From a virus (taxonomy: Duplodnaviria > Heunggongvirae > Uroviricota > Caudoviricetes): DNA of 64,000 nucleotides. The stretch lies in IMG/VR virus record IMGVR_UViG_3300045911_000760; one strand, given 5' to 3'. Positions 2,366-46,456 of the stretch are shown here, piece by piece. A model generated the notes under the pieces. It was not told the DNA's origin and did no database searches. It was given only the letters and a program-made list of their open reading frames with translations. How positions within the stretch are numbered: the stretch's first letter is position 1; the number at the start of each line of letters is the position of its first letter. Position numbers and translations under genes: made by a program.

Positions 2366-5300
2366 TTACCTGTCCATCACGGAAACGAAGAAGGACCGCT
2401 CGTCGGTCCTCGGTGGCGTGTTGTCGGTCGTGACGCGATTGGTCACGCGGTACTTCTGTCCAGCGACGCCGCCGCTCAGCCAGACGGTGGTCCGACTTCC
2501 GTCGGTCTGCGGCGCGAAGGCTCCGCTACCGATCTCGAGTTCGTCGCCGTCCGCAGTCCACGAGCTTTCGGCGATCTCCTCGTCGGCCTGCAGCCAGCTC
2601 GACCAGTTGAAGCCGTAGTCCAGAGTGGCGTCGGGGTCTTTGACGATCGTCTTCTGATGCATCGTGGAACTCGCGGAGAAGGTGCGGAGCTCGGGCTCGA
2701 TCGAGACGAAGCGGGTGGGCGGGGGAGGGGTGAACGCGCCGGCGGCCGCGGCGATCACGGCGGCTCCGAGTTCGCGAGCCACCAGAGTCGCGGCGCGGAG
2801 CGAGAGCGCGTCCGTGCCCAGCTGGAGACCCACGAGAGCGGCGAACTCGAAGCCCAGGCGGATGAGTTCCGCTTCCCCGAGCGAGAGCGCGACCAGCTCC
2901 GCCGGGGTGAGCACGAGCGTGGACGGACCGAATGGGCGCGCGGCCGCAGTGGTGGCAAGGAGCGGTGCCGAGGCGGGGCCGTGATGCAGGGCAGAGAGCG
3001 ACGTCGCCCCGAGGGGCAGCGTCGGACTTCGGAGCGCATGGGGCTCGAGCGCGGCCGGCGCGGCGACGACGACCGCGGGCCCACCGTGCACCGCAGCGCT
3101 CTGCCCCGTCGCGACCCGCAGGACGTCCGTGCCGAGGCCCAGGGCGAGCAGTGCGTCGACGGTCAGGGCGCCGCTGTCGATGAGCGCCAGGCCGAGCTCC
3201 AGGGCGACCTGAGCCGTCGTGCTGACCCCGGCCGAAGCTGGGCCCAAGAGGGGGGCGGCTGCGGCCTGCACGCTTGCCCCAACCGCTCCGCTACCGAGGA
3301 GCAGCCCGCTGGCGCTGAGCGCCGCAAGCTGCAGGGCCGCGGCGCCGTGCTCTCGTCCCGCAACGTCCGTAGACGCGACCGCCACCGCAGGAGTCCCCCA
3401 AAGCGGCGCGGAGAGCGACAGAGGCGACACGACCAGAGACGCGGTACCGAACTCGACGGCCTCGAGTTCGTCGACAGCGACCCAGCTGCTGGCAGGCGGC
3501 GGGTACCAGACCTCGGCGTCCTCCTCGAGATCGCCCGAGAAGTACATGGCCGTCGACGTGCCGCCGAGCAGCGACGCCATGGCCGAGCGGTCCATCGCGC
3601 GCTCTGGGTCACCTTGGCCGTGGCCCGGCGAAGCGTCGTAGACGTCGGCGTACAGGTCGACGAAGTCGACGAGTTCTTGCTGCGCGTCCGTGGCCGTGAA
3701 CTGCGGCCCGAGGTGGGGGGCATCGCCGAAGGTGGCGAGGAGCGTCTCCCACGCGACTTGCTGCAGGCTCTCGGCCTGCTCTCCGGTGACCGTGGACGGG
3801 TAGATCGCACCCCGCGGGTCTCGCCGGTAGAGCGTCCCGTAGATCACGAGGGCGGCGAAGTACTTGCCGAGGTCCGTCAGGTGGACGTTGTTCGTGCCGT
3901 GGTCGCTGAAGATGAGCGCGAGCGTGTCGTCGACCGTCGCGCCCGTGATTCCGGCGAGCGTGCCCGTCGTGGCCTGCTCGACCAGCTCGGCCAGGGCGCC
4001 CGACACCGGGAGGATCTGCAGACGATCGCTGCGGCCCTCAAGCGCGAGGGAGGCGTTGACGCGCGAGCACACTGCGGCATGCGCGAGGTCCTTGGCGCGC
4101 GCGTAGGCGATCCACGTCGAGAGCCCCGCCACCGTGTACGGGAGCCACGTCGTGTAGAAGTAGCCGACGCAATCCGGAGACCCCTCCCGTACGAGCTCGT
4201 AAATGTGTCGCGCGAGCGGGACGGTGTCGTGACTCGCGATGGCCTGCAGCAGGTCATGCCCTTCGCAGAAGGCGAGCGCGTCGTAGGGGCGAGCGGTCTC
4301 GCGTCCAGCGACGGCCTGCACGTTGCGGAAGTGCTCGACCAGATCGAGGTTCTCCCCCGCGCGATTGTGCCCATGCCGGTACCCCGGCCACGTCACGTAA
4401 TCGGGAGCTGGAGCGATAGGGGGGCCGCCAGCCGTTCGGTACTCCAGCGACGCTCCGATGACGTAGCGACGCCCGTAGTCCACCTCCAACCCTTCGCCGA
4501 TCGCGATGTCCCTTACGTCACCAGGGATCCGCTCGTCGGTAAGCGAGTGGCCGTCGATCTGGAAAGCGACGATGGTGCGCGACGGCCCCAGGTCGTCAGG
4601 CTCAGGTAGAGACCCGCTCGGGTCCACTGGGCCACCCTCGCCGACGGCGAGTTCGGAGGCGATCAGGAGCGGTCCCTGCCAGCTGGACCCCGTCTGGTCG
4701 AAGGTGGGCGACGTCGTGACGCCCCACCCGTGCACGACGGGGAATCGGTTTCCGAGGCGCACGCGGGAGCGCCCGGTTTCGGTGAGCGGCGACGCGGGGG
4801 CAAGGTCGAGCGTCTCTGGCCCGAACGCTGCCGCGGTGGCCGAAACCCGGTGCGCCGCGTCTCCGAGTGCGCTGAGCGTGGTGGTCAGCGCTCCGCGCAC
4901 GATCGAAGTCTGGACGTAGGCGGCAGCGCCGTTCGCCGAACTGTCGTCGTAGCCGGTGATGGCCCGCGCCTGGAACGCGAGGCGGGTCACCCCGTCGTAC
5001 GCAAAGGCGATCTTCCCGCGCGTGATGGTCGGGTCGGACTCGGAGCTTGCCGGCACGACGCCGCGCCAACGCTGGGCGAACTCTCCCCCGGAACCGCCGG
5101 AGGCAACCTGCACCCAGGTGACGCCCAGCCCGCTGGGCGTGACGTCGTCCGAGCCGAACGTGAAGATGTCGAGCTCGAGCAGTTCCCCTTCGTAGACCGT
5201 GAGCCAGCCCGTCTTCGGCTCCGGGTAGTCGTCGGTGCTGTACTCGTACCCTCCGAGGCTGCGGATCTCGAGCGAGCGCGCGGGTGGCGCTTCGGCCGCC

Positions 5301-36073: not shown

Positions 36074-38035
36074 TCACCGGTTGAGGTGTTGCTGCCGGAT
36101 GTCCCAGTAGATTTGCCAGTCGACGTGAGCGCTCTTCAGTCGCTCCGTGAAGAACGCGAAAGCGAGGATCTCGAGACCAGCAAGCCCGTAGACGAGGCAG
36201 TCCCAGAGCTCGTTCCGCGCGCCGGAGGGCCGTCTCCACTCGTAGAGACCGTTGCCGAGCGGGACTTTGGTCTCGACGGTGAGTTCGTCGATCTGCTCCT
36301 GCGTGATGTCGACCGGGGCATTGAAGTGCCCCTCGCGCTGCATCCCCTGGCCGGACCACTCGTGTCGAAGTGCGGAGCTCCAGCGGTCCTTGTAGACGTC
36401 GACCTGGATGCCGAAGATCGCGATGCCGAGCGGCGAGTTCAGCTTCCGGAAGTGCTTCACCGCCGTCGCGTTTTGCGAGATCCCGGCTAGCCCCTTCACC
36501 GGGTAAACACCGGACATGTAGGTCCGGCAAAACCGGTACACCGTGTCGGCGCGGTAACCCGAGTCGATGAGGGTGATGTCGATCTGGTACTGCGTCCCGT
36601 CGTCAGCGACGTAGTTCACATCACGATCGAGCAGTTCCCCGAGGCGTCCCCAGGTTCCCGAGTCTTCGAGGTCCTCTGTGTTCCCCTCGAAGCGCCAGTA
36701 GTCGAGCAGAACGCACCGCGCCCCGCGGCACCACCCGAACACGGCCACCGCCAGGTTGTTCGCGTGCACGTCGACAGCGCACGTCACGGCCAGGATCGGA
36801 GACCCACAGGCATCGTCGGCCCATTTGTTCGGCACCTCACCGAAGCGGTACTCGGGGCGACGGTGCTTCGAAACGGCTGTATTCGTGACCTTCTCGCCGT
36901 GGTGCTTGAAGGGCTCCCCGAGCACGTTGTTGTAGAAGACCTGCAACTTCCCAGGGTCCTTCATCTGGCCACGCTGCGTATCCCAGGCCAAGAGCCAGTC
37001 CTTCACCGCTTCGGCCCAGCTGTACATGCCGGGGGGCGAGTAGAGGCCGCTCAGGTGATAGCTGCGGATCTCCCGCGACCTAGGTTGCGCCGTCGGGACC
37101 CACTTCGCCCCGTTGATGTCCAGGTCGAAGAGACGCGTCTTGTCGCCGTTGAAGTGCGGGTTCTGGCAGTTCTGGCAGAGGTACCGAACCGACTCCTCGA
37201 CGAGGAACCCGTTCTCCGTCTCCCAATGCATCCCCGAGACGACGCCGGTCTCGTTGTTCTCGTGACGGAACCGGAGCTCCTGTGGAAACCCGCATTTCAA
37301 GCACCGAACGTGGTACTTGCGCTGATCCCCCTGCTTGTAGAGCGCGTGGATCTTCGAGGCGCCCTCGATGAGGGGCGTCGACCCGTTGAAGATCTTCCGG
37401 CTTACCGCGTACGCCTTGGTCCGGCTCTTTGCGAGTTCGTAGGGGTCGCCGTCGTTGCTGACGGTCAGCGGCCACCCATCGATCTCGTCATTGAAGAGGT
37501 ACTGAACAGAGAACGTGCGGAGCTTGGCAGCGTTCCTGGCGCCGAAGGGGATTAGCGAGCCGCCTCCGACCCACTCGATCTTCTCCTTCGTCTGACCGGT
37601 CTTGCGGTTGTTGCCTTCGTCCGAACTCTTGATGAGATGCGACAGCCCGGAGAGCTGAAGCATCGGGATGATGTACCCGCTGACACGGAGGTTCGCGAGG
37701 CCGTCGTCGGCCGTCACGAGCATCATCGGAGCCGACTTCAGGTGGTCGATGCCGTACCCGATGCCGTTCTCGATGATCCCAGCCGTGTACCCGACCTGGG
37801 CCCCCTTCATCAGGGAGACCTCGCGGACCGGTGACTCCGGCGAGAGGCAGTCGATAATCTCTCGCAGGTACGGCGTGACCGCGAAACGGTAGGGGCCAGG
37901 AAGCGCGGTATGCTGGGGAGGGAGGTATCGGCTCCGTTCAGCCCATTCTGAGGGCTTCAGGACCTCCATCTGGGTGGTCCAGGAAGCGAGCCCATCCGCC
38001 AGCCACTCGAGCTGAGCGGCTTCGAAGTTTTGCAT
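36074..38035 (-). CDS. terminase large subunit, GpA family
   Basis: 653 aa with Terminase_GpA-like architecture. It includes a Cys cluster (CLKCGFPQ...CQNCQNPHF) and Walker-type segments, and overlaps the small-subunit stop. Confidence 0.85.
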   Translation of the reverse strand: MQNFEAAQLEWLADGLASWTTQMEVLKPSEWAERSRYLPPQHTALPGPYRFAVTPYLREIIDCLSPESPVREVSLMKGAQVGYTAGIIENGIGYGIDHLKSAPMMLVTADDGLANLRVSGYIIPMLQLSGLSHLIKSSDEGNNRKTGQTKEKIEWVGGGSLIPFGARNAAKLRTFSVQYLFNDEIDGWPLTVSNDGDPYELAKSRTKAYAVSRKIFNGSTPLIEGASKIHALYKQGDQRKYHVRCLKCGFPQELRFRHENNETGVVSGMHWETENGFLVEESVRYLCQNCQNPHFNGDKTRLFDLDINGAKWVPTAQPRSREIRSYHLSGLYSPPGMYSWAEAVKDWLLAWDTQRGQMKDPGKLQVFYNNVLGEPFKHHGEKVTNTAVSKHRRPEYRFGEVPNKWADDACGSPILAVTCAVDVHANNLAVAVFGWCRGARCVLLDYWRFEGNTEDLEDSGTWGRLGELLDRDVNYVADDGTQYQIDITLIDSGYRADTVYRFCRTYMSGVYPVKGLAGISQNATAVKHFRKLNSPLGIAIFGIQVDVYKDRWSSALRHEWSGQGMQREGHFNAPVDITQEQIDELTVETKVPLGNGLYEWRRPSGARNELWDCLVYGLAGLEILAFAFFTERLKSAHVDWQIYWDIRQQHLNR

Positions 38036-38835: not shown

Positions 38836-38954
38836 CTTGTCACTGTCGGAAGGTCAGAATGTCAGCGAGGGGCGGGGGCCCCATCAAGAACGGCGGAACG
38901 GGGGTACAGCCACACAGTACCTTTTCGCGCGATGACGGAAAAAGGTCGCACCTT

Positions 38955-39676
38955 TCAGAACCCAAGCACCTTGTGCCTTCGAAGCTGTTCGAGCAGCGAT
39001 TTGCTGTAGATGGCTGGAAAAGCGCGCAGCGTGCGCTTGTACGAGCGCTCCAGGGTGGGGTTGGCCTTCACCTTCACGCTGCGCCGCGAAAGATCCCAAA
39101 GCTTCCGGACCCTGGGACGCTTCTTCGTCCCCATGACCCGGTACAAGCCCTTCCTTCCGCCGTTCAGCTCGAGAAACGCAACCTTGCCCCCCGACCCAAA
39201 AGCCTGGGCGATTGCGCGAGCGTTCCTGGCGGTACGGGACCTAGACCCCCCCCTCTTCGTGCGGGGGAGAGCCGTGACCTTATTGGGGGCGCGAACGAGC
39301 TTGGTACGGGGCGAGCTCCCCATGGCCTGGCCGGCCGCCACCTCGGTGGGGATGGCCTTGGCGCCGCTCTTGCCGCGCACCGTGCCGCCGTCCTCCTGGG
39401 TCACCATGTAGTCGGCGATAGAGCCCGTGCGGGACTGCATGCGGTGCAGGGCGAGGCCTCGCTCCTGCTCCACTCGGATAGACCCTGCGGTGTACTTGTT
39501 CCGGAGGATCATCGTCCGCCGGATCTCCCCCTGCCAGTTCTCACGCAGGGCGAACGCCGAACGGTTCAGCGCGTTGCGCGCTGCGAAGGGGACTGCTCGG
39601 TGGGCGAACTTCTGGAGGTCGCGCTGGAAGCGCTCGACGTTCCGAACCTGGAGGTGGAAGTCGTCGCTCACGTGAC
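38955..39676 (-). CDS. hypothetical phage protein (basic, about 240 aa)
   Basis: The GTG start is preceded by GAGGG. The N-terminal extension in the listed ORF is low complexity and probably non-coding. Confidence 0.35.
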
Positions 39677-39852
39677 CCTCGGAGAGCGCCCGGGGCGCTG
39701 AGCGAAGAGGCGAGAGACCTCCTCGGGACGAACGCGAGAACGCCCCTCGAGCGCGCGGCGCGGCTGGACCTCGAAGGTTCCCTTGGGACTGGCCTTCTCG
39801 GGAGCGCGGCTCGCGGGGAGCTCGGAGGGGTGCTTGGGCGCGGACATGCGTC

Positions 39853-40056
39853 TCAGGCGTGGAGAGCGCGGAACCATCGGGCCGTGCCGATGCGGCGCGT
39901 GGCACGGACCACCCTGGGGTGAGCCATGCCGTGGCGGTCGAAGACGGGGACGAGTGCCGCGCGGGCCTCGGGCTCTTCGTCGAGTGCGGGAGCCGACTCG
40001 GCGCGGAGCTTCGGGGGCCGGGCGCTCTGGAGCGTGTACTGGCCGGTGACGAGCAT
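39853..40056 (-). CDS. small hypothetical protein (67 aa)
   Basis: ATG preceded by GGGTGA; it follows the 54-aa membrane ORF by 5 nt. Confidence 0.25.
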   Translation of the reverse strand: MLVTGQYTLQSARPPKLRAESAPALDEEPEARAALVPVFDRHGMAHPRVVRATRRIGTARWFRALHA

Positions 40057-40061
40057 CGGAA

Positions 40062-40226
40062 TCACCCGAGGAGGAGGCGGGCGAGCGCAAAGCCAAGAGC
40101 GCCGCCGGCGAGACCGGAGGCGAAGCAGGAGAGCCGCAGGAGCAGCGCCTTGCGGAAGGAGCGCTTGAAGGCGGGTGTCTCCTGAGCGTCGAGCTGCAGG
40201 GTGAAGACGTGGGGTTCGGTCGTCAT
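40062..40226 (-). CDS. small tail-anchored membrane protein (54 aa)
   Basis: Unlisted ORF MTTEPHVFTLQLDAQETPAFKRSFRKALLLRLSCFASGLAGGALGFALARLLLG. ATGA overlap with the upstream gene; C-terminal TM helix. Confidence 0.3.
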   Translation of the reverse strand: MTTEPHVFTLQLDAQETPAFKRSFRKALLLRLSCFASGLAGGALGFALARLLLG

Positions 40227-40411
40227 GACGCGGGGAGGCAGGGAACCAGCACCAAACAGGCTTCCACGAAGGAGCCGGAGTGCAGCTCACCTTCCGGAGA
40301 GAACCAGCGGCAGTGAACGTGCCCGTCCTTGTAGTGGTCCACGGTCATGCTCGGCCCGCCGCTCTTCAGCCGAACGACGTCACCTGTCCGGAATGCATGC
40401 TCTTGGGTCAT
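40223..40411 (-). CDS. small protein, DUF2158/YodC-like
   Basis: 62 aa with GDVVRLKSGGPSMTV...HCRWF pattern typical of the YodC-like family. Confidence 0.45.
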   Translation of the reverse strand: MTQEHAFRTGDVVRLKSGGPSMTVDHYKDGHVHCRWFSPEGELHSGSFVEACLVLVPCLPAS

Positions 40412-40626
40412 CGGGCCTTTCCAGTTCGCTTCACGCGGATGGTCCCCATGTGCCCCTCGATGGCGAAGTGGCCCGCCTTGCGGGCGGCCTTCTTGGCGTC
40501 GGGGTCACGGAGGAGCTTGGTCACGGCGACTTCGAAAGCGCCCTCGGGGAGCTCGTTGAGCCCGACCTTCAACGTGGGGAGCCCCATGTCTCCCTGGGGG
40601 AGCGGGGGCTTAGTGGCGGAGCGCAT
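40408..40626 (-). CDS. small hypothetical protein (72 aa)
   Basis: First gene after the large non-coding region; overlaps the downstream gene (ATGA). Confidence 0.35.
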   Translation of the reverse strand: MRSATKPPLPQGDMGLPTLKVGLNELPEGAFEVAVTKLLRDPDAKKAARKAGHFAIEGHMGTIRVKRTGKAR

Positions 40627-41170
40627 GCGAGTTCGGCGGCCTCACGCTCGAGTGCGTAGGCCTCAAAGTGAGGTGTTTGAAACGCTCGACGATGCTCGAC
40701 CGTGCTCGACGAAAAGCGCGGAGGGCCAGGTGGTAATCCGCATTACCACTGCTCTGGTAACGGCTAGGGGGGCGTTACCGAATCGTTGACCCCGTACCGC
40801 CGGAACATCGCGGTTCCGCCCGGGCTGCGCTGCGGCGGTAGCACCCCCGGGGGGGTCTACCGGGTCGCAGGTGCGCATCTCGGAAGCGTGGTACGGGGCG
40901 CCGACCCGCCCCCCGCCCAGTCCTCGCGGGCCCGGGGTGGCGAAACGCATCACGGAAACCGTGACTTGCTCTTTCGCCCAAAAGCGGTGGGGGGCAACCG
41001 ACCCCCCAGCGTGCGCGCTTCGCCAAAGTATGCTGCGCAGGTCGCAAGCGGTCGGTGGCGCCCCCGAAACTCGGCCCGCGAGTTTCGGCACAGGCGCCTC
41101 GGTCGCCCGGGCTGCTCGTCTTCGCCCCGCCTCCGAAACTCCTCGTAGGGAGTTTCCGACCAGTTCTGGC
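40627..41170. promoter_or_regulatory. 543-bp non-coding regulatory region with phased direct repeats and multiple palindromes
   Basis: No credible ORF in any frame. Three GCTCGAC repeats at exact 10-bp phasing (40684-40710). Palindromes GGTAAT-N4-ATTACC (40732-40747), GGTAACG-N10-CGTTACC (40756-40779), GGAAC-N6-GTTCC (about 40803-40818) and TCACGG-AAA-CCGTGA (40950-40964). Two related inverted repeats share CGAAACTC half-sites (41062-41088, 41131-41160). Confidence 0.5.
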
Positions 41171-41633
41171 CTAGTCTTCGTGGCAGTCCGCTGCGACGGC
41201 ACGGCGCAAGCTGTCGAGGCTCTTTGCGAAGTGCTCCTGGCCACGCATGGCGTCGGCCTGCGACTCCTCCAGGAAGCGGACCTTCCGCTCTAGCTTCCGG
41301 AGCATCTTCGCCGTGGTTCGCTTGTGGGACACGTGGGAGTCTCTGAGGCCTTCGAGCTTCCTCGCGTTCTCCATCACGTGCTCTCGGAGCTCCTCGAGCT
41401 GGTCGATGGTCAGGCGACTCTGCTTCATGAGCAGGAGTGCCGCGGGGTTGACCCACCACTTCCGGACCTTCCGCCTGCTCCCCTGGAAGCTCACGAGCAC
41501 GCCGTCGTAGTCCTCATGGAGCGCGAGGAGCCGGCGCTTCATCTTCCAGACCGAGGTGCCGGCCTTCTCGGCCGCTTCCCGGATCGTGAGGAGGTCGTCC
41601 TCGCAGGGTTGGGGCAGGGCGGTTCTCACGCCT
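41171..41633 (-). CDS. HTH DNA-binding protein with C-terminal coiled coil
   Basis: GTG start preceded by GGAG. HTH-like LTIREAAEKAGTSVWKMKRRL. The N-terminal part of the listed ORF is low complexity. Confidence 0.4.
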
Positions 41634-42228
41634 TCTCCTTGGCGCTTGGTGCGTCGCTGTCCTCCCCGTTGGCCCATGCGGCGTATTGGGCACGCAGAGC
41701 GATGCGCCACTCCTCGTGGGCGCGCTGGTTCGCCTTCTGGGCGCGTCTCAGGGCGCCTTCGATCACCGCCTTCGCCGCGGTGTCGCTCGCGTTCGAGCAC
41801 GCCTTGATGACCTTCGCGGCGTCGGGAGCGAGGAACAGGGCGAGGCCCGCGAGGGGACCGAACCACCCCTCCACACCAGCGGGCCAGTCGCTGCGGGTCG
41901 TGTAGCGGACCAGGAGGCGGTCCTGGGTGGTTGGGGAGATGCGTCGCCAGACCTTCTGCAGGCGTCGGGCCTTCTCGATCTCCCCGACGAAGTGCCGGCG
42001 CTCGCCGTCGGGTGTCTCGCCCCAGCCGAGCTGCTCGTCGGAGTACAAGTCGACGTTCGGGACGCCGGAGGGGCCGATCGAGCCTTGCTGGGCAATGTTG
42101 ATCACGGCGGCCATGGTGCCGCGCTCGCCAAGCGCCGACGCCGCGCGGTTCACCCACCACTCGACGTCTCTGTCGAGTTCGGCGGCTACCTGATGCTTCG
42201 TTTCTGTTGTTTGTCCGGGATCTGCCAT
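41626..42228 (-). CDS. hypothetical protein
   Basis: About 200 aa from the internal Met (MADPGQTTE); non-biased composition. Confidence 0.4.
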   Translation of the reverse strand: MADPGQTTETKHQVAAELDRDVEWWVNRAASALGERGTMAAVINIAQQGSIGPSGVPNVDLYSDEQLGWGETPDGERRHFVGEIEKARRLQKVWRRISPTTQDRLLVRYTTRSDWPAGVEGWFGPLAGLALFLAPDAAKVIKACSNASDTAAKAVIEGALRRAQKANQRAHEEWRIALRAQYAAWANGEDSDAPSAKEKA

Positions 42229-42329
42229 GTTACGCTCCTGCTCGGCTGCGAGCGGCATGGCTCGGGAAACCCTCACCGTTGGGATGCGGTGGGGGTTTTC
42301 GCTTTCGGGAGGACGTGCATCCCAGGGCC

Positions 42330-42791
42330 CTACCGTTTCGGTAGCTGCGGTGGTGGGGGAGACGCAGGAGTTTTGGGCTCCAGTTGCCGTAGACCCTTTG
42401 CCCCACTCAGCAGTGCTCCACGAAGAGACTGTCGCATCAGGAACTCAGTGCGATCCTGGGGCGTGAGACCTTCCAGATGCCTGGTCTGCAGTCGAGAACT
42501 CGCCTTGCTGGACCGCTTCGCCGCCCCGGTGATTCTGGAGTCGCGTAGGCGAACGATGTCGATCGTGTTCCTTGGATCCGAGAAGCGCACCCCGCTCCCA
42601 GGGAGGGGGAAGTACTCCCGGTTGCGTTTGCGCATCGCTCGCCGGAAGAGTTCGCGTCCCCGGGCGTTCATCTGCACACCGCTGAGTTGCTCGATCTCGA
42701 CCCAGGACACAGTGGTCCCGTCTCCTGTCTGATCGATAAAGCTCAGGAGCGCCTCGGTGTCTGCCTTACGTTCTTGGTTCGGTTCGAACAT
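42330..42791 (-). CDS. hypothetical protein
   Basis: 154 aa from the internal Met (MFEPNQERK). The upstream part of the listed ORF runs into the repeat region and is unlikely to be coding. Confidence 0.4.
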   Translation of the reverse strand: MFEPNQERKADTEALLSFIDQTGDGTTVSWVEIEQLSGVQMNARGRELFRRAMRKRNREYFPLPGSGVRFSDPRNTIDIVRLRDSRITGAAKRSSKASSRLQTRHLEGLTPQDRTEFLMRQSLRGALLSGAKGLRQLEPKTPASPPPPQLPKR

Positions 42792-45014: not shown

Positions 45015-45457
45015 GAACGTCTCGTTGTCTTGGAGAGGGCTTCCAGGCACGCCTCGGCGACCATCGACTCAAACGTGGTCCGGTCGCCGATTCTGCGGAG
45101 GTGCATTCGGGAGCGGTGGCGCAAGCGGGATAGCCGGCGCTTCTTCACGCGGCGGGAGCGGTGCTCGCACTGGAGCAGAAGCGCCATCGCCGCGATCTGC
45201 GCCATCGCGCTCCGGGTCGTCTTGAGGCCCGCTTTCAACATCTGGAGGGCCGCTTGGAGCGACTGGGCCTCGTCATCCGTTGGCTGGAACTGCACCTCAC
45301 CCACGACCAGAGGTTCGTCCCTCAAGTCGCCCGCAACCGGGGGCTCTGCGGGCGCGCCAGCCGCCCGCAGCTCGACCGTCCCGATGCCCTTGGCCACCTC
45401 ACGCCCGCCGATCCGGATGCTCAGGTCGCGCGCTGCGTGTACCTCAGCCACAGTCGA
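45011..45457 (-). CDS. hypothetical protein (148 aa)
   Basis: GTG start 7 nt after a GAGGAGG SD on the minus strand; overlaps the sigma-like gene stop. Confidence 0.35.
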   Translation of the reverse strand, partial: STVAEVHAARDLSIRIGGREVAKGIGTVELRAAGAPAEPPVAGDLRDEPLVVGEVQFQPTDDEAQSLQAALQMLKAGLKTTRSAMAQIAAMALLLQCEHRSRRVKKRRLSRLRHRSRMHLRRIGDRTTFESMVAEACLEALSKTTRRS

Positions 45458-45863
45458 CCTCCTCGTCTGCAACCCCCAAGTCGAACTCCGCCGGGAGCGC
45501 CGGCCCGTCTCCCGCCATCTCCTCGAACACACCACCCAGGGGCTCGCCGTGGAGCGTGTTCAGCCGCTGCAGCGCTCGCCCCTCGAGCTGGCGGATCCTC
45601 TCCCGGGTCACTCCGAACAGTTCGCCCACCTCCAAGAGGGAGCGAGGGCCACGGTCCGCAACGTCGAGCGAACAGGTCTCCTTCAGTTCGTGGAGCTCCT
45701 TATCGGGGAAGGCGTACGCGATGCCGCCGGTGGCGGTCACCTCAATGAACAGGTGATGTCTGCAGCTCATGAACGGGCACGGTCGCACCCCGCCCACACA
45801 CTCGCCCCGCGTCTTCGGACGTCGATGCTGCTCGATCGGTCCCTCGAGCAGGACCAGCCGGCG
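45444..45863 (-). CDS. sigma-70 region-4-like HTH regulator (candidate late-gene activator)
   Basis: Internal Met start (MRRLVLLEG). Cys/His cluster CPFMSCRHH. The C-terminus, LEVGELFGVTRERIRQLEGRALQRL, matches sigma-70 region 4.2. Confidence 0.4.
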   Translation of the reverse strand, partial: RRLVLLEGPIEQHRRPKTRGECVGGVRPCPFMSCRHHLFIEVTATGGIAYAFPDKELHELKETCSLDVADRGPRSLLEVGELFGVTRERIRQLEGRALQRLNTLHGEPLGGVFEEMAGDGPALPAEFDLGVADEEVDCG

Positions 45864-45898
45864 CATGTCCCGGGCGGATTCGGTGCGCGCCCCCTTCT

Positions 45899-46456
45899 TC
45901 ACCGCTTCGCCCTCCGCTTCGCCTGAGCCTTGGCCGACTTCACCCGCGCCGCGGCGGCCACGAGCGCCGGGTGAGCTGGAACGGCGCCAGCCGCCACGCC
46001 AATGCAGACCGCGTCGCTGCGGTTCAGACCGATGCGCCCCTTCGGCCAACCCAGCACTCGGGTCATCGCTGCGGTCCGGCACTCCTCCTTCGAAGCCGTG
46101 GAGCGCCCGGTCATCGCCCTCCGCCAGGTCTGCCCCGTCACCCCGACAAAGGGGATCCTGCGGATCTTCGCGAAGAGCCGCGCCTGACCGACCGAGTCCA
46201 GGATGAGGCCCGACCCGTTGCCCCGCTTCACCTCCGGGTCCTTCGTGTGGAGCGACCAGTCCACCTCCTCGTAGGCGCACACATCCACGTGAATTCCCGA
46301 GTGGTGGATCTCGGCCAGCTCCGCCGCCAGGTCGTCCAACGAGTGCAGGACTGGCAAACGAAGAATGCTCCAGCGCTGACCTTCCTTTGCCTGGAGCGCA
46401 AGGGCTGGGCTGGAGAAACCGGGGTCGAGCGAGAGAACCACGAACATGCCGCTCAC
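45899..46456 (-). CDS. RuvC-like Holliday junction resolvase
   Basis: N-terminal VVLSLDPGFSSPALAL (catalytic Asp context) and C-terminal SDAVCIGVAAG, giving a RuvC-like pattern. Confidence 0.6.
   Translation of the reverse strand: MSGMFVVLSLDPGFSSPALALQAKEGQRWSILRLPVLHSLDDLAAELAEIHHSGIHVDVCAYEEVDWSLHTKDPEVKRGNGSGLILDSVGQARLFAKIRRIPFVGVTGQTWRRAMTGRSTASKEECRTAAMTRVLGWPKGRIGLNRSDAVCIGVAAGAVPAHPALVAAAARVKSAKAQAKRRAKR

Follow-up and report, generated by a model that had tools for sequence, protein, structure and literature searches.

The Ltr regulators of Gram-positive phages (RinA, ArpU and LtrA/B/C) have repeat regions located upstream of terS; for ArpU, three repeats were shown to be essential, and experiments have located a terminator downstream of the activator gene, ahead of the late promoter (Quiles-Puchalt et al. 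2013, PMC3753634). The junction between early and late genes at positions 40627-41170 of the 64-kb window studied here (the whole stretch of phage DNA that was analysed) holds a system that, judged by analogy, resembles these RinA/ArpU/LtrC late activators in logic, without sequence homology. The likeness begins with a small basic protein (152 aa, pI 9.6) encoded by the last gene of the early cluster. It extends to direct repeats that lie immediately distal to the regulator gene and upstream of the packaging/late operon (as far as the contigs reach) in all ten loci that we compared (in the window at 460 nt from the regulator stop codon, owing to an insert), to a repeat sequence that is specific to each regulator, and to a predicted terminator that would separate the regulator gene from the late promoter. 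In contrast to the Ltr systems, the regulator has no sequence relationship with the RinA, ArpU or LtrC families (no Pfam or PHROG match at permissive thresholds), its modelled fold combines a winged helix with a single long helix, its repeats abut a -10-like hexamer in strict 10-nt phase, and the phages have a GC content of ~67% and are probably phages of Myxococcota, their sole genome match being a Polyangiaceae MAG.

A further parallel, one of architecture alone, is offered by PhoB at pho boxes and by OmpR, where activation takes place at direct repeats that replace the -35 element. Here, too, repeats of about one helical turn would occupy the -35 region of a putative promoter that has no -35 hexamer; unlike PhoB and OmpR, however, the regulator is phage-encoded and carries neither a receiver nor an OmpR/PhoB-type domain.

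The gap between the regulator gene and the first late gene (Table 1) measures 544 nt, rather than the 543 bp given in a preliminary description of this DNA. Its placement at an early/late boundary, as proposed there, is borne out by the gene content on both sides: on the upstream side, the regulator-like gene is joined by early genes for an SNF2 helicase, methylases and a Sigma70_r4 protein, and the downstream side holds a gene for a 72-aa protein, a DUF2158 gene, a minor-tail-like gene, cos, and the genes for TerS, a lambda-type TerL, portal, protease and capsid. Every motif that had been listed is present in the sequence, and two gene ends were revised, with the upstream gene ending at 41629 instead of 41633 (152 aa) and the sigma-like gene spanning 45444-45902 instead of 45444-45863. 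We take it as reasonably probable that the gap is a composite junction, made up of a promoter-proximal part (~40627-40713) and a hairpin-rich part (~40714-41170). No frame of the gap shows a coding signal (codon-position GC 0.65-0.74 in every frame, compared with a GC3 of 0.85-0.90 in the adjoining genes), which rules out a coding or pseudogene origin of the insert. Comparison of the region 40400-41700 with 50,697 phage records gave no match at the DNA level, and ARAGORN found no tRNA or tmRNA in the region. The folding energy of the whole gap has z scores of -3.8 and -4.7 against shuffled sequences and lies just -2.2 sd from other 544-nt windows of the same GC-rich genome; it is thus not an outlier within the genome, and we do not use it as an argument.

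Table 1. Positions of the features of the junction and its flanking genes in the 64-kb window
Feature	Position	Strand	Remarks
First late gene, conserved 72-aa protein	40408-40626	-	homologues at matching position
Short predicted late-operon leader	40627-40661	-	imperfect GC-rich hairpin at ~40638-40673
Weak -10-like hexamer TTTGAG	40662-40667	-	13 nt past the third repeat unit; read by eye
Three direct repeats	40683-40710	-	gene strand reads GTCGAGCA, GTCGAGCA, GTCGAGCG; exact 10-nt phase
Non-coding segment from regulator stop to repeats	40714-41170		~440 nt looks inserted relative to L033/L040
Two palindromes with shared GGTAA/TTACC half-sites	40730-40779		GGTAAT-N4-ATTACC, extending to an 8-bp stem, at 40730-40749; GGTAACG-N10-CGTTACC at 40756-40779
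Second multi-helix domain	40788-40900		9-bp closing helix 40790-40798 / 40890-40898
Multi-helix domain	40936-41027		11-bp closing helix 40938-40948 / 41015-41025; three hairpins inside (minus strand)
Hairpin H2, CCGAAACTCG-N5-CGAGTTTCGG	41064-41088		perfect 10-bp stem; -15.7 kcal/mol; related to H1
Hairpin H1, TCCGAAACTCC-N6-GGAGTTTCCGA	41132-41159		one mismatch; -13.9 kcal/mol (RNA)
Regulator gene, 152-aa basic protein, candidate binder of the triple repeat	41171-41629	-	open reading frame and Logan gene call agree

The promoter-proximal part is marked by three direct repeats, whose plus-strand copies (GCTCGAC) start at 40684, 40694 and 40704, at a spacing of exactly 10 nt, and whose consensus on the gene (minus) strand is GTCGAGC(A/G). 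When we searched for any exact 7-mer occurring three times at any period from 7 to 14, this triple was unique in the 64-kb window, and the shuffle control gave a mean of 0.0 over 200 shuffles. The third repeat ends 57 nt before the first late gene. Other viral contigs with GTCGAGC tandem arrays in 10-nt phase (L023-L027, L029, L030) were set aside as unrelated; theirs are long arrays of 10-mers with at least five units (three in L026), and by tblastn none of them holds a homologue of the window regulator.

The comparison set consisted of the window and nine further loci with homologues of the 152-aa regulator. A search over periods 7-14, with no period preset, chose a period of 10 in all ten loci, and each locus shows the same order, which runs from the regulator homologue to three 10-nt-phased repeats and, in contigs that are long enough, on to a -10-like hexamer and the late/terminase genes. 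Repeats of the window type are kept beside regulator homologues in L022/L033/L040, L039 and L028, and different 10-nt-phased triples are found in L041, L032, L042, L043 and L045, whose homologues have diverged recognition helices. Specifically, the predicted recognition helices SVWKMKRRL and SHWKMLRRL pair with GTCGAGCA (window, L033/L040, L039, L028), GHRTMRRRL pairs with GTCGnnC repeats (L041), SERTMLYRL with TCCGCAA repeats (L032), and SERTLRRRL, PERTLRRRL and PPRTLRRRL with GCGGCCA or TCGGCCA (L042, L043, L045), the L042 unit being TGCGGCCA. Repeat sequence and predicted recognition helix thus change together, a covariation that is based on about five specificity groups, with several loci being close relatives of one another. 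The earlier suggestion that the repeats are a binding array gains support from this comparison, since position and 10-nt phase are kept in every locus and the sequence co-varies with the candidate regulator. At the equivalent position in two other phages (L015, L017) we found a second, unrelated small regulator family with GAATCACCA repeats, also in 10-nt phase; members of this second family carry tRNAs in or just downstream of the early/late junction (L015, L018).

Terminases identified downstream of the repeats in three of the loci belong to different families, the window having GpA and both L028 and L041 having Terminase_6, so the repeats accompany the regulator gene in these sequences and not the packaging genes. 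Eight relatives have their first repeat 5-28 nt past the regulator stop codon. In L039 the distance is 268 nt, and a reverse-strand DUF2158-like ORF fills the slot; the insert shows no similarity to this ORF by tblastn. The slot between the regulator gene and its repeats is a hotspot for accessory DNA, taken up by the hairpin block in the window and by the reverse DUF2158 gene in L039.

Sequence searches place the regulator outside the described families. Pfam returned nothing at E <= 10 beyond chance-level matches, a PDB sequence search returned generic coiled coils alone, and the regulator matches no PHROG family, with a weak PHROG match in two of 32 family members; a profile search returned 29 database proteins. 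The regulators are thus an undescribed protein family (median pI 10.3), absent from Pfam and PHROGs, in a familiar kind of switch. A single-sequence AlphaFold model was too poor (pLDDT 59.5), and we used an AlphaFold2 model built on a 27-sequence alignment (pLDDT 92.9). In this model a strand, two helices and a beta-hairpin form an N-terminal winged helix-turn-helix, followed by a long C-terminal helix (residues 62-149). Foldseek matches to the model are weak (E >= 0.029), and all of them are winged-helix DNA-binding proteins. From these predictions and the covariation described above, the 152-aa winged-helix/coiled-coil protein is the most likely binder of the three repeats.

We infer a promoter at the triple repeat from the position of the hexamer that follows it. 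Relatives carry TAGTAG, TATAGG, TTAGTG, TAATAG, TATACG, TATACA or TATTAC (likewise read by eye) at a matching distance, ~12-17 nt past the third 10-nt unit, a distance that depends on the register of the weaker units (L041). In total, a TA-rich hexamer lies at near-constant distance in nine of the ten loci, and the L039 contig ends before it. All of these -10-like hexamers are weak, most of them without the final T that is usual at this site, and a scan of 40300-41500 found no consensus sigma-70 promoter (-35/-10 with 16-18 nt spacing), an absence that is consistent with, and no proof of, an activator-dependent promoter. The hairpin in the predicted leader (-18.3 kcal/mol, z = -2.2) has GC-rich counterparts in the relatives. 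The ATG of the 72-aa gene is not preceded by a Shine-Dalgarno sequence, and homologues of its product are 63-77% identical (L015, L017-L021, L022, L033, L040). Further downstream lies a lambda-type packaging/head module (Nu1-like TerS, GpA TerL, W-like protein, lambda-type portal, S49 protease, gpE capsid), with cos at ~38891, just upstream of terS and ~1.7 kb from the gap; the termini of four related contigs (L003, L006, L007, L008), which begin GTT...CCCGCC...CTCGC, match the window sequence from 38891.

The hairpin-rich part appears in our comparisons as a segment specific to this phage lineage, as the palindrome block of about 440-460 nt is missing from all nine other regulator loci. The gap holds nine perfect hairpins (stem of at least 6, loop of 3-10) against a window mean of 2.1 per 544 nt (sd 1.5); this count is reached only by windows that overlap the gap, which makes it the densest cluster in the 64-kb window. 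Four of its palindromes had been called unrelated, but two of them share GGTAA/TTACC half-sites, with four of the 21 copies in the 64-kb window falling within the 48 nt of 40732-40779, and an alternative pairing between these two is available at 40743-40760. The remaining two are (C)GGAAC-N6-GTTCC(G) at 40801-40818 and TCACGG-AAA-CCGTGA at 40950-40964. Exact-pattern scans of viral contigs for pieces of the insert gave nothing or a single contig, L037, from a related phage, and in 308 kb of related loci blastn with the insert likewise hit the L037 hairpins alone. A repeat or mobile-element origin was ruled out, as the 64-kb window has no further copy of the insert and inspection of its borders by eye showed no terminal inverted repeats.

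Two hairpins at the regulator end of the block, H1 and H2, share the CGAAACTC arm sequence. The near end of H1 lies 11 nt beyond the regulator stop codon (41171-41173), and H2 follows 69 nt from H1. H2 is 88% identical over 34 nt to positions 6287-6320 of L037, which carries two CGAAACTC hairpins, each just past the stop codon of one of two convergent genes that both show a coding signature (GC3 0.81 and 0.83). Hairpins of this type thus lie within about 5-30 nt of stop codons in both the window phage and L037. Like intrinsic terminators, H1 and H2 are stable GC-containing hairpins 3' of a gene; unlike them, they are not followed by a U-tract in a scan for terminator-like sites, and their arms are conserved across phages that share only about 32-55% protein identity, while the loops vary. 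This conservation of the arms suggests a sequence-specific recognition for which a plain terminator would have no need. The preliminary description had read the CGAAACTC hairpins as operators and not terminators; because their sole other occurrence, in L037, lies directly after gene ends, and hence in a terminator-like position, they are probably terminators or insulators instead.

An alternative view, put forward in the preliminary description, is that the whole 544 nt are a multi-operator switch, in which the HTH protein, the sigma-region-4 protein or both would bind the palindromes (the CGAAACTC pair among them) as operators. The number of perfect palindromes far above background, the clustered GGTAA/TTACC half-sites, the lack of U-tracts and the conserved arms with variable loops (which would also fit a dyad-symmetric protein site) speak for it. 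Yet the nine relatives that have the regulator family and the repeats (which mostly start 5-28 nt past the regulator stop) lack the palindrome block, so the block cannot belong to the core of the switch; moreover, no palindrome recurs elsewhere in the 64-kb window, the L037 copies lie at gene 3' ends and not at promoters, and the spacing of the half-sites varies (7 or 8 nt). The proposed role of the sigma-region-4 protein is not supported either, as its homologues do not follow the repeats: a 47%-identical homologue occurs in L017, whose repeats are GAATCACCA, and none was detected in the fetched flanks of L028 (copies L028, L031, L034), whose repeats are identical to those of the window. We consider the multi-operator reading quite unlikely. 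A structured non-coding RNA or functional RNA leader (an sRNA, a put-like antitermination element or an RNA-stability element arising from early read-through) is possible but doubtful. The segment is non-coding, relatives carry tRNAs at the equivalent junction, and the two multi-helix junction domains fold far better than shuffled sequences. The domain at 40936-41027 reaches -49.4 kcal/mol on the minus strand (z = -4.35) and -42.9 on the plus strand (z = -3.1), one closing helix being complete on the minus strand only, via a G-U pair. The domain at 40788-40900, which encloses the hairpins 40836-40862 and 40801-40818, shows no strand preference (z = -3.2 minus, -3.9 plus). This inconsistency between the domains, together with the modest standing of the overall folding energy within the GC-rich genome and the lack of a promoter or U-tract terminator that would bound an RNA, argues against this possibility. 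Rfam 15 gave no match at E <= 1 over 39500-42500, and at E <= 10 with relaxed filters over 40600-41200 (601 nt) the best hits had E = 2.3-7.3, far below gathering scores. No homologue of the folded domains was found for a covariation test, and the Logan contigs with this region (L009-L014) show 100% identity wherever they cover it.

It is also conceivable, if unlikely, that the regulator acts at the repeats as something other than an activator, namely as a Q-like antiterminator that loads at the promoter, or as a Cox/Xis-like architectural protein or a repressor coating the phased repeats. The arrangement recalls lambda Q and pR' in that the regulator's gene immediately precedes its site and a single (predicted) late promoter, from which late transcription would cross cos into a lambda-type packaging/head module, and the short leader contains a GC-rich hairpin. 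In contrast to lambda, however, the regulator has no Q-family domain, the site would consist of three direct repeats that span the -35 position and the DNA upstream of it, and on the minus strand no U-tract terminator or terminator-like site lies past the repeats or downstream of the putative promoter, whose leader would measure only about 30 nt (30-60 nt at most) instead of being long. P2 Cox, a winged-helix protein that binds phased direct repeats, is among the weak fold matches (4lhf, phage P2 DNA-binding protein; TM 0.56 on target, probability 0.96, E-value 0.15), and the two systems share a small winged-helix protein and tandem sites in helical phase; against this, every fold match has E >= 0.029, and our regulator differs from Cox/Xis-like proteins in its extra 90-residue helix, in a site at a putative late promoter and in the absence of an integrase or att context near the repeats in any locus. 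Were the promoter repressed, one would expect good -35 and -10 elements, which are absent here. Highly improbable, finally, is a function of the gap at the DNA level, as a cos/pac site, an iteron origin or a single-strand initiation signal. Direct repeats and many hairpins upstream of packaging genes, along with a large terminase of the cos-cutting lambda GpA type, might point this way, but the related contig termini align to ~38891, which rules out the gap as the cos site, the repeats follow the regulator gene across different terminase families, and the hairpin block, which close relatives lack, cannot serve as an essential origin.

On balance, we favor, with moderate confidence, the two-part explanation of an activator-bound late promoter joined by a lineage-specific insertion of hairpins. 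According to this explanation, the regulator would occupy the three GTCGAGC(A/G) units in oligomeric form, along one face of the DNA; the units, one helical turn apart, would cover roughly -54 to -27 relative to the weak -10-like hexamer, at a promoter with no -35 hexamer, and the bound regulator would recruit or stabilise RNA polymerase and thereby switch the late genes on. Late transcription would then cross the small genes and cos before reaching terS, terL, the portal gene and beyond. H1 and H2 would most likely serve as U-tract-less, orientation-independent terminator or insulator hairpins that stop early transcripts from reading into the late operon; in most relatives, however, the regulator gene and the repeats lie too close together to accommodate a terminator, so insulation cannot be essential to the system. 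The explanation leaves the seven other hairpins unaccounted for, and the folding energies favor neither strand consistently.

A doubtful but more far-reaching possibility is that the hairpin block is a new structured element that can be exchanged, be it a multi-hairpin transcriptional insulator or a non-coding RNA with two multi-helix junction domains, with the CGAAACTC hairpins as a sequence-specific signal that otherwise diverged phages share, and that, jointly, the regulators and repeats represent an undescribed activator family with a readable helix-repeat code. In this joint reading, held with the same reserve, the block would have entered the DNA that separates the gene of a late activator from the site that this activator binds.

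If the two-part explanation is confirmed, a late-gene switch would be defined for high-GC, probably myxobacterial phages in which regulation has not been characterised, and a new protein family would join the phage late regulators that adjoin their own direct-repeat sites, as the first candidate in such high-GC phages for a counterpart to the Ltr systems of Gram-positive phages. The regulator/repeat pairs (GTCGAGCA, GTCGnnC, GCGGCCA and TCCGCAA) could possibly provide an orthogonal set of activators and promoters, and this natural series of pairs would be a test bed for the recognition code of winged-helix proteins.

The three 10-nt-phased units in the gap are conserved beside homologues of the upstream regulator in all 10 loci compared, so that the preliminary description was correct in reading them as phased repeats. 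Profile, pattern and locus searches yielded nine regulator loci with readable context in addition to the window. When the sequence downstream of each regulator gene was scanned without bias for its best 8-mer triple at periods 7-14, the period came out as exactly 10 in 10/10 loci. Eight of them have the triple 5-28 nt beyond the stop codon; the offset is 460 nt in the window and 268 nt in L039. Within the window, the GCTCGAC copies are the sole exact 7-mer triple at any of these periods; 200 shuffles gave none. A single-sequence search with the regulator returned one near-identical database match, and a profile built from flanking-search homologues gathered 29 proteins, the near-identical copy among them; the 72-aa downstream protein has homologues at 63-77% identity. 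Contigs L009-L014, from the identical phage, are comparatively uninformative because they are 100% identical to the window region over the stretches covered. L022, L033 and L040 are mutual close relatives, and the latter two entered the period comparison.

Repeat units and predicted recognition helices (read from an alignment of regulator homologues) at the ten loci
Locus	Units	Helix
Window	GTCGAGCA / GTCGAGCA / GTCGAGCG	SVWKMKRRL
L033, L040	GTCGAGCA x3	SVWKMKRRL
L039	GTCGAGCA / ATCGAGCA / GTCGAGCA	SVWKMKRRL
L028	GTCGAGCA x3	SHWKMLRRL
L041	GTCGCCC / GTCGAAC / GTCGGTC	GHRTMRRRL
L032	GTCGGAAT / GTCCGCAA / TTCCGCAA	SERTMLYRL
L042	TGCGGCCA x3	SERTLRRRL
L043	(T/C)GCGGCCA x3	PERTLRRRL
L045	GTGGGCCA / GTCGGCCA / ATCGGCCG	PPRTLRRRL

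Across the ten loci, the repeat sequence is kept where the predicted helix is kept and changes where the helix changes, while the terminases identified downstream differ in family (GpA in the window, Terminase_6 in L028 and L041). Because the repeats track the helix and the terminase families differ, the sequences indicate that the repeats belong to the neighbouring regulator gene rather than to the packaging module. In L015 and L017-L021, a second, unrelated family of small regulators stands in the same place, followed by GAATCACCA repeats in 10-nt phase. The proposed link to the sigma-like (Sigma70_r4) protein is not supported: its 47% homologue lies in L017, where the repeats differ, and no homologue was detected in the flanking sequence retrieved for L028, though the L028 repeats are identical. 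Separately, the unrelated viral contigs L023-L027, L029 and L030 have tandem arrays whose 10-nt units share a GGTCGAGC core, with 5-12 copies in most and three in L026, alongside further repeats in 10-nt phase. No homologue of the window regulator turned up in these contigs by tblastn, and the arrays may be iterons or centromere-like sites.

The regulator matched no Pfam or PHROG family, its PDB sequence matches were generic coiled coils only, and its family is basic (pI 9.2-11.7). An AlphaFold2 model based on 27 aligned sequences has high confidence (pLDDT 92.9) and consists, in order, of a strand, helices 16-23 and 27-40, a beta-hairpin wing and a single long helix (62-149). Foldseek matches to this model are weak (E values of at least 0.029), and every one is a winged-helix DNA-binding protein (among them PefI, MarR, LysR and IclR types and the P2 DNA-binding protein 4lhf). 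Together, model and matches bear out the earlier label “HTH protein” at the level of fold class.

The window is a phage or prophage of ~67% GC, and almost all its genes are encoded on the minus strand. The gap had been placed at the early/late boundary, and gene order agrees, since in minus-strand order early genes precede it and packaging and structural genes come after; its length needed a minor correction from 543 nt, as did the upstream gene end from 41633. No frame of the gap shows a coding signal (GC by codon position is 0.65-0.74, vs 0.85-0.90 for GC3 of the genes on either side). The 72-aa first late gene has an ATG without a preceding Shine-Dalgarno sequence; its homologue appears in one source, in a 59-aa version, under the seemingly spurious name “translation elongation factor EF-Ts.”

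Features of the window in minus-strand order
Feature	Coordinates	Remark
Bro-N, two DNA methylases, MazG-like, SNF2 helicase, Band_7, Sigma70_r4 protein (152 aa)		early genes
200-aa ORF
Regulator gene (152 aa)	41171-41629	minus strand
Gap	40627-41170	544 nt
Insert	~40714-41170	~440-460 nt
H1	41132-41159	begins 11 nt past regulator gene stop
H2	41064-41088	related to H1
Multi-helix domain	40936-41027	z = -4.35, minus strand
Multi-helix domain	40788-40900	z = -3.2 minus strand, -3.9 plus strand
Clustered GGTAA/TTACC half-sites	40732-40779	48 nt
GCTCGAC copies	40684, 40694, 40704
Putative promoter	~40660
Conserved 72-aa gene	40408-40626	first after gap
DUF2158 gene	40223-40411	forward
Two small ORFs, 238-aa minor-tail-like gene
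Probable cos site	~38865-38891	minus strand, GTTCTTGATGGGGCCCCCGCCCCTCGC from 38891
Small-terminase-like gene
Lambda-type GpA large terminase	36074-38035
W-like gene, lambda-type portal, S49 protease, HDPD, gpE-type capsid gene		beyond large terminase

Read by eye, a TA-rich hexamer (TTTGAG, TAGTAG, TATAGG, TTAGTG, TAATAG, TATACG, TATACA or TATTAC) lies ~12-17 nt past the third unit, the L039 contig ending before this position. A short GC-rich leader follows. Next comes the 72-aa gene or, alternatively, a small zinc-finger-like ORF, followed by the terminase genes. The three units span about -54 to -27 relative to this -10-like hexamer, and a promoter scan found neither a -35 hexamer nor a consensus promoter, an arrangement typical of an activator-dependent promoter. 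The regulator would act at the three units, upstream of the hexamer, to activate the late promoter; we infer activation rather than repression or antitermination. In L042 (~2990-3060) and L043 (~2935-3005), the leaders past the TGCGGCCA-type candidate promoters share the block GCCAACCC.CCGCGAGCCCCCAC...GGCGGGAAC.ACGAGCCCGGGCGAG, which may represent either a small ORF missed in gene calling or a conserved leader RNA.

Among described systems, the Ltr superfamily (RinA, ArpU, LtrC) of Gram-positive phages comes closest. Its proteins bind direct repeats located just beyond the gene that encodes them, and they activate the terS promoter; three repeats are essential for ArpU, and a terminator lies between activator gene and promoter (PMC3753634). 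The regulator family resembles these proteins in its workings on paper but fails the test of Ltr membership by sequence, and we therefore file it as an analogue, not a member. Four related contigs (L003, L006, L007, L008) begin GTT...CCCGCC...CTCGC, and the window matches these starts just upstream of terS, a probable cos site that late transcripts from the putative promoter would cross, as in lambda. For the gap itself, ALTERNATIVES was excluded, with the probable cos at ~38891 and an essential origin unlikely because close relatives lack the hairpin block.

All the motifs listed in the preliminary description were found in their places. The gap holds nine perfect hairpins (stem of at least 6, loop 3-10) vs a window mean of 2.1 per 544 nt (sd 1.5), a maximum attained solely by stretches that overlap it. 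Whole-gap folding gives z = -3.8 and -4.7 vs shuffles; being just -2.2 sd vs other stretches of the same genome, it is not used as an argument. The palindromes called unrelated are present, but two share GGTAA/TTACC half-sites: four of the window's 21 copies cluster there and make up two palindromes, and pairing between the inner arms of the two is possible as well. Either alternative hairpins or a protein-binding site could account for this layout.

The insert is confined to the window's lineage and resembles nothing in the rest of the window, no Rfam family and not the insert of L039. There, the slot between regulator gene and repeats holds a reverse-strand DUF2158-like ORF (L039 2896-3201, minus), 49% identical to the window's DUF2158 gene; the same small gene therefore stands in two places and two orientations. 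H2, which matches L037 at 88% identity over 34 nt, is the insert's one comparative foothold; L037 is a phage whose late module shares ~32-55% protein identity with the window. L037 holds two H2-type copies, each with the tail GAGTTTCGGCAC. One starts 27 nt past the stop of a plus-strand gene; the other ends a few nt past the stop codon of a minus-strand gene that converges on it, and coding signatures are seen in both genes. The reading of the palindromes as operators is not supported. These copies and H1 in the window lie close to gene stops, a placement that speaks for terminator or insulator hairpins over operators, although recognition of a specific sequence would still fit hairpins that lack a U-tract and whose arms are conserved. 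The 258-nt non-coding gap between the convergent genes (L037 6264-6521), edged by the two CGAAACTC hairpins, also holds the perfect palindromes GCAAATCT...AGATTTGC and GTGACATT...AATGTCAC, so that this related phage too has a gap dense in hairpins. The remaining hairpins of the insert make two multi-helix domains with conflicting strand preferences.

Where relatives have the second regulator family, a tRNA gene (anticodon CAT, as judged by eye) is found within this early/late junction or shortly downstream of it (L018 9909-9983, likewise L019-L021; L015 1696-1768); a 68-nt difference leaves L017 without one. The early/late junction is a hotspot of small accessory genes, and the gap is best read as a late switch of a kind already known from phages, together with a hairpin-rich accessory insert.
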